From the NCBI GenBank assembly GCA_965203355.1, contig OZ241889.1:2848001-2912000 (forward strand): DNA of 64,000 bases. Reading direction: 5' to 3'. This document shows, piece after piece, positions 21-23,469 of this stretch (its first letter is position 1; each line of letters opens with the position of its first letter). The translations under genes were made by a program, and so were the position numbers. This DNA comes from Candidatus Latescibacterota bacterium. Lineage in GTDB: Bacteria; Latescibacterota; UBA2968; UBA8231. Below the pieces are notes generated by a model that ran no database searches, was not told where the DNA came from, and saw nothing but the letters and a program-made list of their open reading frames with translations.

Positions 21-833
21 ATGATGACGCTCGGTGTGGTAGGCCATGCTCGCGAGGTCGCCGCTCATCGGGATGCCTTGCGGGGGTGCCGCGATATCCA
101 GCTCGTACACCAAGCCGACTGTGCCGCCGTATTGGAACGAAAAATAGATGGGCTGGTGTTGTTGCAAGTGGAAGATAAATCGCATTGGGGCGGCGTGGCC
201 CTCGCGTCGGGTCTGCACGTTATGGCGACCCATCCAGTACAAGTGCCGAGCCATTCTAAGGTATGTGTGCTGTCCCTGGGGAGGCATACGCACTTTTGCT
301 CGGCTTTAGCCGCTCGACAGGGCATAGCGCATTATTCGCTGGAGCTTTCCTTTGATTCGGCTTTATTCGATCCTATGGATCGCGAGATGGTGTGCAGCCA
401 AGCGGCCTTGGACCTATGCGACCTACTGCTGAGCACTTGGGGGCCGGTAGATGTGCTGTATAGCAGGATGCGCAACTTTTTTCATCTGGGTCGGATGGAG
501 GACGTATCGGCCGCGTTGCTGCGGATGCGCAACGGCGTCGAAGGCTCGGTTGCCCTCCTCGATTTTCCAGCGGTGGTGCCGGCGTTGCGCATCCGCGAGT
601 GCGCCCAAGACGAAATAGTCGATACTTCTTGGCCTTGGGTTTGGGAAGCGGACGATCTGGCGGCGTACTATCGCAATTTCGTCGCCTACATCCAAGGCCG
701 CGCCCAGCCGTTGTTGGGTTTAGAGCAGGTGACCGAAAGCTATCGTCTTTTGGAGTGGATGCGAATGTCGGCGAGACAGGATGCGATTTTAAACTGCAAG
801 GAAATAAAAAGTCTCATAAAATTTAATATGTAA
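21..833 (+). CDS. Divergent Gfo/Idh/MocA-like oxidoreductase
   Basis: N-terminal LGVVG Rossmann-like start, GLHVMATHP at the usual GKHVLxEKP position, ED-x-A-x-LLRMRNGVEG C-terminal domain pattern. Confidence 0.5.
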   Translation: MMTLGVVGHAREVAAHRDALRGCRDIQLVHQADCAAVLERKIDGLVLLQVEDKSHWGGVALASGLHVMATHPVQVPSHSKVCVLSLGRHTHFCSALAARQGIAHYSLELSFDSALFDPMDREMVCSQAALDLCDLLLSTWGPVDVLYSRMRNFFHLGRMEDVSAALLRMRNGVEGSVALLDFPAVVPALRIRECAQDEIVDTSWPWVWEADDLAAYYRNFVAYIQGRAQPLLGLEQVTESYRLLEWMRMSARQDAILNCKEIKSLIKFNM

Positions 834-850
834 CCATAAAACAAAAAAAA

Positions 851-1852
851 TCAGCCACCAATCTTAATATAATCAGACGCATTGTCGAGCAGTCTCTCGC
901 GATTTTCGTAGTAGCGCATGGTCGTCTTTAGATCCTTGTGGCGCAAATGGGCTTGCACCTGCTGGGGCTTGGCTCCACCTTCAATCGCCAAAGTGCAGCA
1001 GGTGTGCCGGAACATGTGTGCGGTGACGTTCTGGGGAAGGCCAGCACGCAAGGCGTACTTTTTGACGATGTGATTCACCGATTGATCCGTCAGTGGCTGG
1101 CCCCGAGAATGGTTGCGCGACAGACTGATGAAAACCTTGCCGGTCGTCGGCAAACCCACCATCTGTAGTTGTTGTTTGTATAATTCTAGATGATGTAGGA
1201 CGATGTTTTGCAGTTTGATTTCCTGCGCCACGCCTGATTTAGTCTCGGGCAGGTACAGGACGTGAAAGACGCCTTCTAAGGATATATCCTCCCAAGCGAC
1301 GCCTGCCACTTCGGAGCGGCGCAGCCCGCCAAACGTGAGCAAGTGAAATATGGCCGCATCGCGCGTGCGTACCAAGTCGTCTTTTTCCTCGGCGATGGCT
1401 TGCTGAATCTTGTTTAGCACCTGATTGGAAAGCGCTTTACCGGCCAGCGTTTCATCTACCTTGTAGCCGCGCACCAATGTAGAGTCAGCGGGATTATTCT
1501 CAATGTGGCCTAAGGCGACCAACATCTTGAACAACGACTTCAGACTGGACAGCTTTCTGTTGATGCTGCTGCGCTTGTAGCCTTCGTTGACGAGTTGATT
1601 TCTAAAGGCGACCACGTGCTCAAAAGTGATTGACTGCAAGATGGCAAGCGATACTTCATGTAGTTCTAGGTCGATGGATGCAAAGAAATGCTCGAGATCG
1701 GAGTAATACGCACGCCGTGTGCGTTCGCTGAGCTGGCCGCTGAGAAATTGTTCCAGCGGATCGTCCGCCATCAACGCGGGCGCAGGCGTTATCCTACAGA
1801 CGATCGGGTTGCGGGTTGCGGCCGCAACATGGCGGCTCGACTGCTCGCTCAT
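851..1852 (-). CDS. Tyrosine recombinase, Xer-like
   Basis: SAM-like N-domain (SERTRRAYYSDL, SSINRKLSSLKSLF); catalytic R (GGLRRSE), K (ETKSG), HxxR (HMFRH), H (LRH) and Y (TMRY); true start may be the downstream Met (MADDPL). Confidence 0.9.
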   Translation of the reverse strand: MSEQSSRHVAAATRNPIVCRITPAPALMADDPLEQFLSGQLSERTRRAYYSDLEHFFASIDLELHEVSLAILQSITFEHVVAFRNQLVNEGYKRSSINRKLSSLKSLFKMLVALGHIENNPADSTLVRGYKVDETLAGKALSNQVLNKIQQAIAEEKDDLVRTRDAAIFHLLTFGGLRRSEVAGVAWEDISLEGVFHVLYLPETKSGVAQEIKLQNIVLHHLELYKQQLQMVGLPTTGKVFISLSRNHSRGQPLTDQSVNHIVKKYALRAGLPQNVTAHMFRHTCCTLAIEGGAKPQQVQAHLRHKDLKTTMRYYENRERLLDNASDYIKIGG

Positions 1853-2047
1853 AAAATCTCGCTAGGGCTTAATTGGTATTCCAAATATAGCGAACATCAC
1901 GGGATTTTGCTTTCGCGATGCTTTGTGGCCGCGTCTTGACCCTCGCCGTCCTATCTGAGGCCATGAGGGGCAGTCGCACATGTCAGGGCGCGAAGAGCAA
2001 GATCAATTCTAAACTGGACAATTCATCCACGAACAACCTCCCTTCGG

Positions 2048-2079
2048 ATACTACCGATAATGCCTGTTATCGGTAGTAT
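2048..2079. other. Candidate dif-like recombination site (13-6-13 perfect inverted repeat)
   Basis: ATACTACCGATAA-TGCCTG-TTATCGGTAGTAT; inner ATAA-N6-TTAT matches the dif core; lies about 200 bp upstream of the recombinase ORF. Confidence 0.7.
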
Positions 2080-2099
2080 AATAGCCGAAATTAAAGAAA

Positions 2100-3866
2100 T
2101 CAGAATTTTCGCAGCAGACGCTCCATATCGCTCAATTTCATCCACGCCATGATCGGCTTATCCGTTGGGCTTATGTGCGGCGAGTCGACCTTTAGCAATT
2201 CGCTGATCAAATGTGCCATTTTCTCGGCGTTCAGTTTTTGCCCCTTCTTGATGCTCACTTTGCGTACGTAGGCCAAGACGATTGCTTCGCGCCAAGATCG
2301 ACCCGAATGTTGGCCATCGCGCACGTCGTTCAATAGCTGATAAAAAACCTCGCCTTCGCCAAAGCGATCCAGTTCGACAGGCACGGCTTCCACCAATACC
2401 GTACGGGCACCAAAATCCCGTAAGACAAAGCCCAGCTTGGCAACATCGCCTTGTATTTGCTTGAAAACTTCAAAATCCGCTGCGCCCATTTCTAGCTGTA
2501 TGGGAAAAAGCAACTGCTGGCTTTCTCCAGTTACGCCGTCCATTTTTTTTATGGCTCGATCGTAATTGATGCGTTCGTGTGCAGCCTGCTGATCGACAAA
2601 CAGCAAGCCGTCGGCTACCTCGACGAGGATGTACTGATTGTGAACCTGCCATATTGCAGCGTCTTCGGCGATGGCAATTTGGGTCGCCGGAGCGACGAAA
2701 GTAACGGCGAGCTGATCATCGGCATCCTGGGGTGTTGACCCGGGCCCCGGCAACTTCTGCAATATCGGCGATGTCGGTTCGCCCACGTGTGCTGGGATGG
2801 CAACGCCCTTGCTTTCGCTGAAGCGAGATGGGTCGTCCGGCCGCCGTATTGGGGACGTAGCATAAACAAAGGCTTGCGTATCGGGTCGCCGCAAGCTTTG
2901 CCGGACGCTGTTTTCAATAGCCGCGACAACCTGCCCTTCATTAGCCAAGCGAATTTCCCGCTTGGTCGGATGGACATTGACGTCGATTTTTCGCGGATCC
3001 ATATCGATCCAGAGCATAAACACCGGATGATGTCCTTCGGGTAGCAGCCCCTCAAAGCACCGCTGTACGGCGTTGGCTATCAATCGCGAAGCAATAGGCC
3101 GCCCCTGTACAATGAGGTACTGCTTGCCCTTGCTCCGACCACAGCGCTCGGGACCGACCAACACCCCTTCGAGCTTGAGGCCCTCTTCCGCGTACGCGAG
3201 GTCCAATAGTTCGGCAACTGGAATGCCCAACAGTTCGGCCGCCCGCTCCCGCCGCGATGAAGGAGCGTAGTTCAAGACTTGGCGGTCTTCGCGTTCTAGT
3301 TCAAACCCCAAGGCTGGATAACCAGTCGCTAAATGAATGATGGTCTGGGCCACGTGGCGCGCTTCCACATCAACAGAGCGGAGGAACTTGCGGCGCGCCG
3401 GTGTATTAAAAAACAGGTTCTTTACCACGATGGTCGTGCCGCGCGCTCGGCCGATGCTGTGCATTTCTCGCTCTATGCCCCCTTCCACGACCAAGCGCGT
3501 CCCCACTTCATCTTCCTGTGTACGCGATTCAATGGCCAAGTGAGCTACGGCCCCAATGCTGGCTAGGGCTTCGCCGCGAAAGCCTAGCGTCTGAATCCGA
3601 AACAGATCAGCTACTGAAGCCATCTTGCTCGTGGCATGGCGACGAGCACACAACGCGATATCCGCCCCGTTCATGCCCGAACCATCGTCGGTCACGACGA
3701 TCGACTGCTTGCCACCGGCCTTGATTTCCACGCGGATTTTAGTGGCACCAGCATCGATCGAGTTTTCGACCAATTCCTTCACGACCGAAGCAGGCCGTTC
3801 CACCACCTCGCCAGCGGCTATTTTCCCAATGAGACTTTCGTCTAGAACGCGAATAGTACTCGCCAT
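2100..3866 (-). CDS. mutL: DNA mismatch repair protein MutL
   Basis: IAAGEVVERPASVVKELVENSIDAGA, GFRGEALASI, DVNVHPTK, endonuclease motif DQQAAHER. Confidence 0.97.
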   Translation of the reverse strand: MASTIRVLDESLIGKIAAGEVVERPASVVKELVENSIDAGATKIRVEIKAGGKQSIVVTDDGSGMNGADIALCARRHATSKMASVADLFRIQTLGFRGEALASIGAVAHLAIESRTQEDEVGTRLVVEGGIEREMHSIGRARGTTIVVKNLFFNTPARRKFLRSVDVEARHVAQTIIHLATGYPALGFELEREDRQVLNYAPSSRRERAAELLGIPVAELLDLAYAEEGLKLEGVLVGPERCGRSKGKQYLIVQGRPIASRLIANAVQRCFEGLLPEGHHPVFMLWIDMDPRKIDVNVHPTKREIRLANEGQVVAAIENSVRQSLRRPDTQAFVYATSPIRRPDDPSRFSESKGVAIPAHVGEPTSPILQKLPGPGSTPQDADDQLAVTFVAPATQIAIAEDAAIWQVHNQYILVEVADGLLFVDQQAAHERINYDRAIKKMDGVTGESQQLLFPIQLEMGAADFEVFKQIQGDVAKLGFVLRDFGARTVLVEAVPVELDRFGEGEVFYQLLNDVRDGQHSGRSWREAIVLAYVRKVSIKKGQKLNAEKMAHLISELLKVDSPHISPTDKPIMAWMKLSDMERLLRKF

Positions 3867-3872
3867 ATGTCC

Positions 3873-4397
3873 TCATAACTCGGCCCAAAGCCGCTCAGCC
3901 CGCTGGCGGAATTCGGCTTGGGTAATTTGGCCTTGTTTGAGCGCGGTTTCCAAGTCGCGCAAGCGACGGCGTGGCCCCCCGCCCCCTTTGAGCTCTAGCC
4001 GTATTTGAGACCAGATGTGCCATCCCCCCACGCCGAGCAATAAGGCGATGAAAACCACACCTCCCCACCACGAGGCCCCTTGCTCTTGACGCACTGCGCC
4101 CCCCCGCCGTCGCCAATCTTCGGCCACGGCCGGGTCAGGCTCGGCTAGCTCAATCCGCTTGGCTACCGTCTCGCCGTTGATTCCTTGGACGCGGACCGGG
4201 CTTGTGAGCTGCCAAGTGAGTTCTTGGGGTTGCACGATCAGATACTCAATTTGATCGGCCTCTCGTATCCGGTCGAATTGCTCCCTAGTAACCGGCACGG
4301 CCATAGGACTCAGCATGTTGAACAGCAACACGATGGCCAACAAGAAGAATGCGAGTGCAAGAGCGAAGTAGGTGGGTTGTGATTGTTTTTTTGTCAT
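3873..4397 (-). CDS. Two-TM membrane protein with SHOCT-like C-terminus
   Basis: Two hydrophobic helices flanking a soluble loop; C-terminal LRDLETALKQGQITQAEF is SHOCT-like. Confidence 0.6.
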   Translation of the reverse strand: MTKKQSQPTYFALALAFFLLAIVLLFNMLSPMAVPVTREQFDRIREADQIEYLIVQPQELTWQLTSPVRVQGINGETVAKRIELAEPDPAVAEDWRRRGGAVRQEQGASWWGGVVFIALLLGVGGWHIWSQIRLELKGGGGPRRRLRDLETALKQGQITQAEFRQRAERLWAEL

Positions 4398-4432
4398 TTT
4401 TTGTTTACATATAAAATTTTATAAGACTTCTT

Positions 4433-7318
<2,886 letters not shown>

Positions 7319-7337
7319 AATAATCCTTATAAGACAT

Positions 7338-20831: not shown

Positions 20832-21782
20832 TCAACCCGCTCCACGGCCCCAGCGATACCTCCACTCGCCGACGATGCGCTGGACGACGCCAGCCTTTCC
20901 CCATACGTCGAGGTCTAATTCGCGCAAGCGACGATCGCGGCGGCACCACGTTATTTGTCGCTTGGCCAAGTGGCGGGTGCGCTGCTTGGTCTGCTCAATA
21001 GCTTCCTGCCAAGGGCAATGCCCGGCCAGCGCCCGGCACATTTCGAAATAGCCCAAAGTCCCCAAGGCACTTTCGCTTGGATCGTATCCCATTTCGCGCA
21101 AGGAGCGGACTTCCTCGACCCATCCCTGCTCGACCATCTGATCAACCCGCTGGTCAATTCGCTCGTAGAGCCGGCGGCGCACCATAGTCAGACTGATCAT
21201 TTGCGGGCGGCGCACCAGCGGCTGTCCCTGACGCTCTCGCCAGAGCTTGCTGAGCGTACCCTTACCCGTCATCACTACCTCCAACGCCCGCAGGATTCGC
21301 TGTGCGTCGCTCGGCGGCAAACGCGCTTGCGCGACTGGATCTCGACGGCCTAACTCCTCATATAGGGATGCCAGCCCCTCGCAGTGCAGGCGCTGTTGCA
21401 ATTCGGCGCGGGTCGGCGCGTATTGGGTGTCGTCCTCAAAGCATCCGTCTAACGCACTCTGCCAGTACAGGCCCGTTCCTCCCACCACAATGGGAAGGCC
21501 CTCTCGGTTCCAGACCTGCCCGATGATATGCCGTGCGGCGCGCGCGTACGCTCCCGCGCTGTAGTCTTCCTCGGGAGCGATTACATCAAGTAAATGATGG
21601 GGGCATTGATTTTGCTGTTCAGCGGTTGGCTTGGCCGTACCGATATTCATGTAGCGGTAGATTTGCCGCGAGTCGGCCGAGATAATCTCCGCTTTGGGTA
21701 CGTGTTGAGCTACTTCGAGGGCTATTTCTGTTTTGCCGGTGGCCGTGGGTCCAGTGATTAGTATTAATGGTTTAATTAACAT
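20832..21782 (-). CDS. miaA: tRNA dimethylallyltransferase
   Basis: GPTATGKT, IISADSRQIY, IGTAKP, GGTGLY, AKRQITW. Confidence 0.96.
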   Translation of the reverse strand: MLIKPLILITGPTATGKTEIALEVAQHVPKAEIISADSRQIYRYMNIGTAKPTAEQQNQCPHHLLDVIAPEEDYSAGAYARAARHIIGQVWNREGLPIVVGGTGLYWQSALDGCFEDDTQYAPTRAELQQRLHCEGLASLYEELGRRDPVAQARLPPSDAQRILRALEVVMTGKGTLSKLWRERQGQPLVRRPQMISLTMVRRRLYERIDQRVDQMVEQGWVEEVRSLREMGYDPSESALGTLGYFEMCRALAGHCPWQEAIEQTKQRTRHLAKRQITWCRRDRRLRELDLDVWGKAGVVQRIVGEWRYRWGRGAG

Positions 21783-21798
21783 ATTACATATTATAGGA

Positions 21799-23469
21799 CT
21801 AATTAGTCGATTCTTTCTTTAACAAAGCCGGCTCCACGATGATCGTTTTCTCGCGGCGCAACAGCGCCTGCCCGGATGCACCCCCACGCGGTTTGGTAAC
21901 GTGTTTTACCAAGGTGTACGCCACGGAGACTTTTTTGGCCGTTTTACCCTTGCTCCAATACGCCGCTAAAGCGGCGGCCTCCTCAATAGTTTGCTTGTTG
22001 GGGGCTTCCTTGCGGCCCTCGCTCCGCAGGACGACATGGGAGCCGGCGTACCCTCGAGCGTGAAACCACAGATCGTTTTGGGCAGACATTTTGTGCGTCA
22101 GCACGTCGTTTTCCTTGTTGTTGCGCCCAGCCCACACCGACCACCCGGTGGAGGTCCTATAGCGCCGGGGATGGGCTTGGGGCTGTTTGCTTGCCGCTTT
22201 ATCGGTGCTTGTCACCTTGCTCGCCAACCAGTTTTGCAGCGCGGCGTTAGCTTCCCAAGTACCGGCATCTACGGCACTAATCCAATGCTCGTATTGACCG
22301 CACTGACCCCTGAGTTCGGCTAGGCGCGGCGGCAGGGCTTGTTGGCGGCGCACGCATTTTTGCGCGGCTTTCAGATAGGATGCGGCGTTTTCCGCCAAGC
22401 TGCGGTTTACATCCAAATCAATCCGCAGGGTCGCTGCCCCTTCAGAATCGAAGAGATCGGCCAGTTCTACTTGCGCGGGCCGCCCCGATAGCTGCCCTAT
22501 ATTGGCCCATAGCGCGTACCCCTTTCGCTTGTATTCTTCAGCACGCGCCGCCTCGTCGAGTTCGGCTTGCATGGCAACCAAACGCCGCCGGGCATTCTTC
22601 AGAGCCTGGCTCAGCCGCCGCCGGATTTGTTGCTGCGTCTGCCGCGCTCGGCACTCGACCCGCTCCTTTTGGTACGCCACCCAGATTCCAGCGCTGACCG
22701 TGTCAAACGGCTCGTAGGCCCCTTGCAAGCGGCGCGGTTCAAGGGCGGAAAAGCAAAATCGGCCAGCCTCTTGCCATACATAGCTGCGGTCAGTCGCCTC
22801 ACTGGTGTACGCTTCGGTGGCCGCGCTCCACAAGGCCGTGGTCGGTTGATCTTCCCCACTCTGTTGGCTGCGGAAGATCAACTCGCGCACCACCGTGGCG
22901 TCCGCTCCGGCCAACCAACGCCTCGCCGCCTTTTCCAAGGGTGCATCCGCCCGCGTCAGCCGGTCATGCCACGCGCCGAGCGCGTCCGTGCCGGGCAACA
23001 GTCGGCCCGCTGGCTCGGGCGGCTGATACGACGCCCCCACAGGCGACCTATCCTTGGCCGTGCCCCAGTAGCCCAAAATCGCGCCATCGGCTTGGCGATG
23101 GAGTATAAACCGCACCTTGTTGGGAATGAGTTCGCACACCAAGACGCCAAAGCTCGGGCGCCCTTCGCGGTCGCGGCGCTCTAGGCACAGGCGCAAGATG
23201 CGCTCGCGGTGCTCGGCTTTGACTTCCACGATCCGCGCCCGCACCAAGTACTTTTGCGGGCCATCGCTCGCCCGCCAAGATCGCGGCCACGCCGCACGCC
23301 GCAGGCAAAGCAAACCCTCTCTTCCGCTGACGCCGTACAGCCACTCGCCCTCGGCAACCGCAAAGGCTAGTTCCGTCGGCTGGGCATAGGACCGCTCGAT
23401 GACCGCCCCTTGCAGACGGGCCCGCAGTTCTTGAGCGAGGGCCTGAATGGTAAAGTAGTCAAAAGCCAT
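21799..23469 (-). CDS. rqcH: NFACT/RqcH (FbpA-like) ribosome quality control protein
   Basis: MAFDYF start, coiled coil, SLAENAASY, NFACT-R domain (GRNNKEND, DLWFHA, GSHVVL, AAALAAYWS). Confidence 0.85.
   Translation of the reverse strand: MAFDYFTIQALAQELRARLQGAVIERSYAQPTELAFAVAEGEWLYGVSGREGLLCLRRAAWPRSWRASDGPQKYLVRARIVEVKAEHRERILRLCLERRDREGRPSFGVLVCELIPNKVRFILHRQADGAILGYWGTAKDRSPVGASYQPPEPAGRLLPGTDALGAWHDRLTRADAPLEKAARRWLAGADATVVRELIFRSQQSGEDQPTTALWSAATEAYTSEATDRSYVWQEAGRFCFSALEPRRLQGAYEPFDTVSAGIWVAYQKERVECRARQTQQQIRRRLSQALKNARRRLVAMQAELDEAARAEEYKRKGYALWANIGQLSGRPAQVELADLFDSEGAATLRIDLDVNRSLAENAASYLKAAQKCVRRQQALPPRLAELRGQCGQYEHWISAVDAGTWEANAALQNWLASKVTSTDKAASKQPQAHPRRYRTSTGWSVWAGRNNKENDVLTHKMSAQNDLWFHARGYAGSHVVLRSEGRKEAPNKQTIEEAAALAAYWSKGKTAKKVSVAYTLVKHVTKPRGGASGQALLRREKTIIVEPALLKKESTN

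Follow-up and report, generated by a model that had tools for sequence, protein, structure and literature searches.

The 64,000-nucleotide stretch of DNA analysed here, referred to as the window, comes from a Candidatus Latescibacterota bacterium (assembly GCA_965203355.1, contig OZ241889.1, positions 2,848,001 to 2,912,000). Near its left end it contains rec, a gene for a 333-residue Xer-like tyrosine recombinase (851..1852, minus strand), and a palindrome called site P (2048..2079, no strand assigned), which is proposed to be the core recombination site of rec. P reads ATACTACCGATAA-TGCCTG-TTATCGGTAGTAT; its two arms of 13 nucleotides each are 100% complementary in the letters of the window and are separated by a spacer of 6 nucleotides. 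It is positioned 195 bp upstream of the ATG of rec and 20 bp downstream of the stop codon of mutL (2100..3866, minus strand), a gene that scores 476.7 bits on TIGR00585 and, in the syntenic loci, always immediately precedes P and rec in the same orientation. The perfect inverted repeat with its 6-nucleotide spacer, and a distance of about 200 bp to the recombinase gene, had been noticed in a sequence-only reading of the window, and both were confirmed. The conservation of P beside homologues of rec, and its co-occurrence with rec across the phylum, suggest that P is very probably the cognate site of this recombinase.

A search of the window for perfect palindromes with arms of at least 10 nucleotides and spacers of 0-12 nucleotides found seven in the 64 kb, and P is the only one of them that has an ATAA-N6-TTAT core. 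The core pattern, with up to 3 mismatches allowed, has 2 matches in the window compared to 0.15 expected from shuffles. The 13-6-13 geometry of P and its ATAA-N6-TTAT core are those of a dif-type site, taken here to be about 28-32 bp long, with two inverted arms and a central region of 6-8 bp. None of the 55 open reading frames (ORFs) scanned in the window is another tyrosine recombinase, a phage gene or a clear insertion sequence (IS) gene, in keeping with the earlier statement that phage and IS cargo is absent.

The recombinase has the Pfam domains Phage_integrase (PF00589) and SAM-like N (PF02899), and its score of 94.8 bits on PF00589, against a cut-off of 27.1, places it in the tyrosine recombinase superfamily. 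The complete R-K-HxxR-H-Y set that had been read from the sequence is invariant in 20 aligned members of the family (R178/R179, K205, H279, R282, H305 and Y314/Y315), and these positions align with the catalytic motifs of E. coli XerD. The last ~70 residues of the protein are almost invariant in the same alignment. Rec falls below the cut-offs of the named Xer families: XerC (TIGR02224, its best NCBIfam match, 130.7 bits, cut-off 335.15), XerD (TIGR02225, 119.8 bits, cut-off 329.6), archaeal XerA (NF040815, 110.1 bits, cut-off 220) and XerS (NF003462, 84.3 bits, cut-off 267). The NCBIfam models of tyrosine-type DNA invertases match it weakly (1.5e-10). The best relative of rec in the PDB is E. 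coli XerD (1a0p, 1.2e-17), and a XerA-like chain, 4a8e, matches at 6.9e-11. No chain named XerH is among the eight PDB sequences that match rec at E <= 1e-5; solved XerH chains are reportedly present in the PDB.

A protein search with rec gave 307 matches, the best 120 of which are 61-89% identical to it. Those genome records of relatives that name the organism give it as Candidatus Latescibacterota, although some are labelled Gemmatimonadota. The members of the rec family are 57-93% identical to the protein of the window. Of the 150 phylum genomes that were sampled, 48 have rec at an identity of at least 57%; none of these has more than one copy, and their next-best matches are 30-32% identical. 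Rec thus appears to be a clade-specific third member of the Xer branch, present in about one third of the sampled genomes labelled Latescibacterota. When the close group of relatives is compared with distant lineages at the same loci, rec is 57-69% identical, leuS 59-65% and mutL 36-45%. The constraint on rec therefore resembles, as far as protein identity can tell, that on a housekeeping gene, being similar to that on leuS and well above that on mutL.

The neighbourhoods of rec were compared at 57 loci from distinct species genomes, of which 55 have enough upstream DNA to judge (L040 and L053, which have too little, were left out). Under a strict rule, requiring 13-6-13 geometry, an ATAA/TTAT core and at least 10 of 13 symmetric positions, 41 loci have a site 54-523 bp upstream of rec. 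A relaxed rule adds 9 loci with a more degenerate copy, 95-657 bp upstream. Altogether, a P-type site lies 54-657 bp upstream of rec in 50 of the 55 testable loci, and the expectation that a palindrome would be conserved upstream of homologues is thereby borne out. The site is farther away, 0.9-4 kb upstream of rec by the strict rule, in three loci (L030, L027 and L029), and no P-type site was found by either rule in L024 and L037.

Positions 3-6 (ACTA) and 10-13 (ATAA) of the arms are invariant or nearly so. Positions 8-9 are symmetric in 26 of the 43 distinct sites, compared to 28 expected, and hairpin covariation was rejected because these positions are no more symmetric than in shuffles. 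The gene-distal arm keeps CG in 39 of the 43 sites and the gene-proximal arm in 30. A perfect palindrome is seen in only 11 of the 53 family sites, the stem being interrupted by 1-3 mismatches in most relatives. Thus the identical arms described by the sequence-only reading are a property of the copy in the window, but not of the family, in which the arm nearer to the gene is less well preserved than the other. In 30 of the 53 sites the spacer reads CAGGCA or the complement of this, and it occurs in both orientations relative to the gene. What is conserved in P appears to be its sequence, and not its pairing. Furthermore, in a related strain represented by contigs only (Logan contigs of runs X5 and X6), positions 1917-2047 of the window are swapped for 19 other letters, and homology restarts exactly at 2048. 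Because of the conserved sequence and this restart of homology, P is probably a site recognised by a protein rather than a mere hairpin.

The recombinase had also been described as lone. This is true within the window, but not in the lineage, since each of five complete close relatives contains 3-4 genes with the PF00589 domain. On the XerD model, one gene in each of these genomes scores 336-347 bits, over the cut-off, a second Xer gene scores 282-289 bits and rec about 119 bits. In one of them, G004, the XerD gene has 337.1 bits against the cut-off of 329.6, and the XerC-like gene has 316.3 bits on the XerC model, whose cut-off is 335.15, and passes the model of the subfamily NF001399. Both proteins keep the R, H-x-x-R, H and Y motifs. 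XerD-type genes (E <= 1e-60) are present in 146 of the 150 phylum genomes and exceed the cut-off in 114. The pattern of P-type sites, ACY-N4-ATAA-N6-TTAT-N4-RGT, is present in 37 of the 48 genomes with rec and in 5 of the 102 genomes without it; the reversed pattern, which served as a control, has matches in 10 of the 150. Because XerCD is nearly universal in the phylum, the P-type sites follow rec and not XerCD. This co-occurrence is the strongest computational argument for P being the site of rec, and it favours the coupling of site and gene that had been suggested from the window.

A single XerC/D-type match (E <= 1e-60), which is below the XerD cut-off, was seen in several distant genomes with rec (for example G053, G055, G075, G086, G087, G114, G125, G138 and G153), whereas most of the phylum has two such matches. 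These may be incomplete metagenome-assembled genomes or represent the loss of one Xer gene in a sub-lineage.

P is located opposite the replication origin. In five close complete genomes the distance from dnaA to P, as a fraction of the chromosome, is 0.492, 0.482, 0.493, 0.470 and 0.498; in four further complete genomes, in three of which rec is only ~64% identical to that of the window, it is 0.497, 0.476, 0.467 and 0.476. The GC skew, taken over 60 kb on each side of P, changes from +0.0695 to -0.0662 in G001 and from +0.0689 to -0.0657 in G004, with the cumulative G-C maximum 39 and 40 bp from P, respectively. The corresponding values for the window are +0.069 to the left of P and -0.068 to its right, with the cumulative maximum at 1997. 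P is at the replication terminus, at kilobase resolution; the agreement of the skew maximum with P to tens of base pairs is partly due to the composition of the 1-kb rec gene and is not to be over-read. The location is that of a dif-type site, a shift of GC skew opposite the origin (0.467-0.498 in the nine complete relatives), and the placement of P at the skew switch speaks for part of the interpretation given in the sequence-only reading.

Among the 52 ORFs that were scanned to the right of P (2080-64000), 41 are encoded by the minus strand, and the genes there are housekeeping ones, such as leuS, asnS, pnp, infB, nusA, valS, gcvP/T and clpX. This strand bias is co-oriented with replication heading towards a terminus at the left end of the window. 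In G009 (locus L032), the mutL-P-rec-leuS group is on contig C2, which is titled 'chromosome: 2' and is 1.13 Mb long, at ~0.53 of its length; dnaA is on C1, and this genome has one XerD-type match at E <= 1e-60.

The window contains four matches to canonical dif-like sites, compared to 0.03 expected. B2 (811..834, plus strand; GTCTCATAA-AATTTA-ATATGTAAC) follows closely on the 3' end of rec and includes the stop codon of an ORF of 270 amino acids (21-833). B1 (4404..4427, minus strand; GTCTTATAA-AATTTT-ATATGTAAA) is inverted relative to it, and these two sites bracket the rec-P-mutL-orf174 block, as their counterparts do in relatives, which is the layout of a dif module. The gene orf174 (3873..4397, minus strand) encodes a small protein that has no Pfam match and no family assignment. 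B3 (7312..7335, minus strand; GTCTTATAA-GGATTA-TTATGTCAA) is the closest to published XerCD dif sites, and its arm TTATGTCAA contains the probable start codon of leuS (ATG TCA ATA AAA, encoding MSIK). A weaker site with 2 mismatches (21776..21799, minus strand) agrees in polarity with B1 and B3, which are likewise to the right of P. The published sequences used for comparison are the dif sites of E. coli, GGTGCGCATAATGTATATTATGTTAAAT, and B. subtilis, ACTTCCTAGAATATATATTATGTAAACT, as given in the Methods of PMC3025954, and that of B. mallei, AATGTCGATAATTGATATTATGTCAAAT, as given in Table 1 of PMC2731167. The likeness to these sequences suggests that XerCD would act on the dif-like sites of the window.

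Genomes of the phylum that lack rec typically have one match to ATAA-N6-WTATGTMAA, for example ATAAGATACATTATGTAAA, and in nine of them the sole match is on a megabase-scale contig. The single match in these genomes indicates that sites of this type are the ordinary dif of the phylum. In 20 close genomes with rec there are 2-7 matches each. Every dif-like match with at most 1 mismatch in G001-G005 lies within ~25 kb of P (0 in the control), and none was found elsewhere in these genomes of 4.5-6.6 Mb. The array they form is polar: the sites are on the '+' strand on one side of P and on the '-' strand on the other, a layout like that of a Ter-type fork trap or of the XDS sites of XerD. A '-' oriented dif-like site follows the stop codon of rec in most loci, including distant ones. 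Its '+' partner precedes orf174-mutL in the close group. In distant lineages it is found 10-90 bp from P, resulting in a composite region of dif and P between mutL and rec (L023, L035, L042, L049, L051 and L055, 200-350 bp upstream of rec). The strict pattern CATAA-N6-WTATGTMAA has 1 match in 5 genomes among the distant ones; with 1 mismatch it detects a site beside rec in G138 and G087, and none in G009. In spite of the canonical dif-like sites nearby, P is, as judged from its conservation, a separate conserved element.

The block orf174-mutL-P-rec, 3.6 kb in size (811-4427), is found in two orientations relative to leuS and the 270-residue ORF; in the close group, orf174 is the first gene of this invertible segment. 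Both orientations are present among complete single-contig chromosomes. Some sister pairs that are 3-4% diverged have opposite orientations (L011 and L014, L008 and L009, and L003 compared to L007 and L044). On a tree of the segment DNA with 26 rows, all of close relatives, the orientation requires 7 changes, at least 5 of which are forced by well-supported branches, and the mean for shuffled orientations is 7.6. The inversion breakpoints coincide with the outer edge of the dif-like sites B1 and B2. The central region and the inner arm of these sites always travel with the segment, and in L008 and L009 so does a single-nucleotide polymorphism in the outer (C-)arm. A plain two-step XerCD exchange in the central region was considered, but it does not predict that the spacers, the inner arms and the polymorphism of L008/L009 move with the segment. 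The contigs of runs X5 and X6 are interrupted at both dif-like boundaries, for which a k-mer repeat is as good an explanation as heterogeneity of the population.

P-like sites also occur elsewhere in the chromosomes of relatives. A site with the CAGGCA/TGCCTG spacer is present once per genome in G001-G005. Beyond the site next to rec, genomes with rec contain 0-4 sites in which the arms are the same but the spacer differs. One of these, 'site 2', has the arms ACTCCCTATAA and TTATCGGGAGT and spacers such as GGGATA and GGGGCA. It is syntenic in six genomes (position 3001-3028 of L076, L077, L079, L092, L093 and L097) and is located 15 bp after an ORF of ~305 amino acids; in L077, the single copy that was scanned, this ORF matches no Pfam family. 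G004 has a second, inverted copy of 'site 2' 800 kb away (L078). Two inverted pairs of P-like sites with the spacer TAAAAG, 158 bp apart, are found in G001 (3001-3186 of L075 and of L074), flanking ~130 bp upstream of two paralogous genes for leucine-rich repeat (LRR) surface proteins. The LRR protein of L075, the copy that was scanned with Pfam, has FlgD_ig and a weak Por_Secre_tail match, a tail of the type IX secretion system (T9SS) type. This arrangement looks like the layout of an invertible promoter switch, and the only tyrosine recombinases of G001 are XerD, the XerC-like gene and rec. Inverted pairs are present in one (G001) of the nine genomes whose extra sites were inspected; the extra sites are mostly single, with spacers not common to another site of the same genome. 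They suggest that rec probably has several targets. In G087, three P-like sites with different spacers are found within ~430 bp (L096, 2799-3259).

The sequence-only reading had proposed that rec and P may form an independent one-gene system of dimer resolution. This part of the proposal is not supported, because the relatives have two further Xer genes whose catalytic motifs are intact, one scoring as a XerD equivalog and the other XerC-like, and canonical dif-like sites are present at the same skew switch, three of them at most 5.3 kb from P. A genome without xerC/xerD and without a canonical dif, as expected of a single-recombinase system, is thus not what was found. Given the exact terminus position of P and its nesting between inverted dif-like sites, P and rec might instead form a terminus-linked system for recombination between sister chromosomes, acting beside XerCD/dif and not replacing it. 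The chances of this seem about even; such a role is suggested by the position at the terminus across the clade, the vertical inheritance of rec as a single copy and a conservation like that of leuS. In this system, two rec protomers would bind the two ATACTA-NNN-ATAA arms of P. Two P sites, most plausibly on sister chromosomes, would then synapse as a homotetramer, with strand exchange at the borders of the 6-bp spacer, and the outcome would be dimer resolution or unlinking. Some P-like sites that differ in the spacer and are located in other parts of the chromosome would probably also be served by rec. Binding, tetramer formation, strand exchange and the biological role are all predicted here from sequence.

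Several observations weigh against a terminus-linked role. The relatives keep catalytically intact XerD and XerC-like genes alongside rec, a coexistence seen in relatives of which the closest are 86-93% identical in rec, and B1, B2 and B3 are within 1.2-5.3 kb of P. With intact Xer genes and canonical dif-like sites so near to P, a second system of dimer resolution looks redundant. P could have its terminus position by hitch-hiking inside a cassette bounded by dif-like sites. Its position in the upstream region of rec, 20 bp after mutL, also suits an operator. Finally, there are P-like sites far from the terminus, some of them conserved and single, which are a poor fit to a pure dif role.

Two explanations leave rec out altogether. 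P might be nothing more than an RNA hairpin or a terminator with which mutL ends; its transcript would fold (-27.2 kcal/mol, z = -3.97), it follows the mutL stop codon closely, and the syntenic 'site 2' similarly follows a stop codon by 15 bp. However, an intrinsic terminator is a G+C-rich hairpin with a U tract, whereas the stem of P is A+T-rich and carries 1-3 mismatches in most relatives, yet arm and spacer sequences are conserved. No run of T or U is present on either side of P on both strands, as had been stated before, and a terminator scan of positions 700-4600 did not flag P. The same arm sequence also recurs at other loci, essentially only in genomes with rec. We therefore give this explanation hardly any credence, and the earlier view that P is not simply the mutL terminator is upheld. 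It is very unlikely too, if slightly less so, that P is a variant dif site of XerC/XerD to which rec is unrelated. P shares the ATAA-N6-TTAT core with dif, is at the terminus, and in distant lineages has a dif-like site 10-90 bp away, but P-type sites accompany rec (37/48 compared to 5/102 genomes) and not XerCD (146/150), and the near-identical arms of P are unlike the XerD-type arm of the phylum, TTATGTAAA.

The other two explanations give rec a different function or origin. Rec might be an invertase acting at paired P-like sites, for instance in phase variation of surface proteins, with P as its autoregulatory operator and the terminus position as a by-product of the dif-bounded cassette. 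The inverted pairs upstream of the LRR/T9SS-tail genes of G001, the extra P-like sites of many genomes with rec, the promoter-proximal position of P and the weak matches to DNA invertases (1.5e-10) are all consistent with this. A strict terminus position and a conservation at the level of leuS throughout the clade are not expected of a phase-variation enzyme, however; the inverted pairs were seen in one genome of nine, most extra sites being single with unshared spacers, and the spacer of P is itself conserved (30/53). We regard the invertase as a serious possibility, but an unlikely one. Alternatively, P and rec might be a domesticated mobile 'dif module', similar to the pdif modules of Acinetobacter or to IMEX elements, descended from an element that became lodged between duplicated inverted XerCD sites at the terminus and persisting without a host function of its own. 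Passages of PMC11705084 describe pdif modules as flanked by inverted XerC/D sites. Here P and rec are enclosed by inverted dif-like sites in distant lineages as well as close ones, the enclosed segment has flipped again and again, and close genomes with rec have 2-7 dif-like sites, whereas many genomes without rec have one. Nevertheless, rec is a single-copy gene under strong purifying selection that keeps strict synteny with mutL, and its inheritance looks vertical in lineages whose rec is 57-93% identical to that of the window. The cassette of the close group also holds mutL, a housekeeping gene, and no copy was seen off the terminus or on other replicons, with the 'chromosome 2' of G009 as a possible exception. 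A domesticated module of this kind is improbable.

The terminus-linked reading can be extended to a more elaborate picture, which we consider doubtful, in which the terminus is a hub of two systems: a polar array of XerCD-type dif-like sites, a third Xer recombinase at its centre that exchanges sisters at P, and a cassette that flips regularly. The array, with '+' sites on one replichore and '-' sites on the other over ~25 kb, would serve to mark the terminus or to trap it, for instance by halting FtsK, by unloading SMC or by pausing forks; XerD unloads SMC at XDS sites, according to passages of PMC11894783 and PMC11840125. Homotetrameric rec at the centre of the array would carry out the actual exchange between sister chromosomes at P, and the P-rec cassette, bounded by the innermost pair of inverted dif-like sites, would flip regularly.

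A Xer gene next to its own dif-like site at the terminus is likewise known from XerS/difSL of streptococci and lactococci and from XerH/difH of Helicobacter and Campylobacter, as described in parts of PMC5357621 and PMC9765430. The hosts of XerS and XerH do not have XerC/XerD, whereas the relatives studied here have XerD and a XerC-like gene in addition to rec. With 84 bits, rec does not reach the XerS cut-off of 267, and the PDB matches of rec at E <= 1e-5 include no XerH chain. The sites differ as well: according to sections of PMC5357621, difSL has a central region of 11 bp and difH has unequal arms, whereas P is 13-6-13 with the ATAA/TTAT core. The single recombinase XerL of Legionellales acts with a dif that has uninterrupted inverted repeats of 10 and 12 bp (as stated in part of PMC9765430), and because of these long repeats a fully symmetric site is not without precedent. 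However, the same sections of PMC9765430 place xerL of L. pneumophila more than 400 kb from dif and give Legionellales as lacking XerCD, whereas P adjoins rec. Archaeal XerA is another single recombinase, with an 11-6-11 inverted-repeat site (passages of PMC5357621); rec has 110 bits on its model against the cut-off of 220, and the host here is a bacterium with XerCD.

XerC/XerD-dif itself belongs to the same superfamily and shares with rec and P the ATAA-N6-TTAT core, the 6-bp central region and the site at the terminus. The arms of P are alike, though, whereas dif has one XerC-type and one XerD-type arm, and the relatives have true XerD and XerC-like genes that are separate from rec. The pdif (xrs) modules of Acinetobacter resemble the locus in carrying genes between opposed XerC/D-type sites (parts of PMC11705084); they differ in that the cassette described here is chromosomal, is located at the terminus, has its own third recombinase and site, and has been inverted repeatedly. 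For L. delbrueckii ssp. bulgaricus, a passage of PMC5345009 describes a pair of dif sites in opposite orientation at the terminus and calls it unprecedented, but that case involves inverted repeats of 38-76 kb and not sites of 28 bp.

A literature search found no paper on a tyrosine recombinase of Latescibacter, and none of the papers listed by a search on dif sites, inversion and the terminus describes the present arrangement; predictions for related phyla may be contained in supplementary dif tables (e.g. those of PMC3025954). Xer-type recombinases whose site adjoins the gene at the terminus are known, as is a fully symmetric dif (XerL). What appears to be new is the combination: a third paralogue beside XerCD, with a site that is central in a polar, multiplied set of dif-like sites and lies inside a flipping cassette.

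The resolution of chromosome dimers is usually presented as the work of XerCD/dif or of one replacement recombinase (XerS, XerH, XerL or XerA). In the present case, an entire clade has retained XerCD-type genes together with dif-type sites and adds a third Xer protein that is conserved about as well as an aminoacyl-tRNA synthetase. The architecture of the surrounding terminus would still be unusual if rec were only a regulator or an invertase. If rec does act at P, the two would make a simple and short pair of recombinase and site, symmetric in some species, which may be of use as a tool orthogonal to Cre/loxP. It would also provide a natural case in which to ask why a terminus needs two site-specific systems, and what role multiple polar dif-like sites play there.

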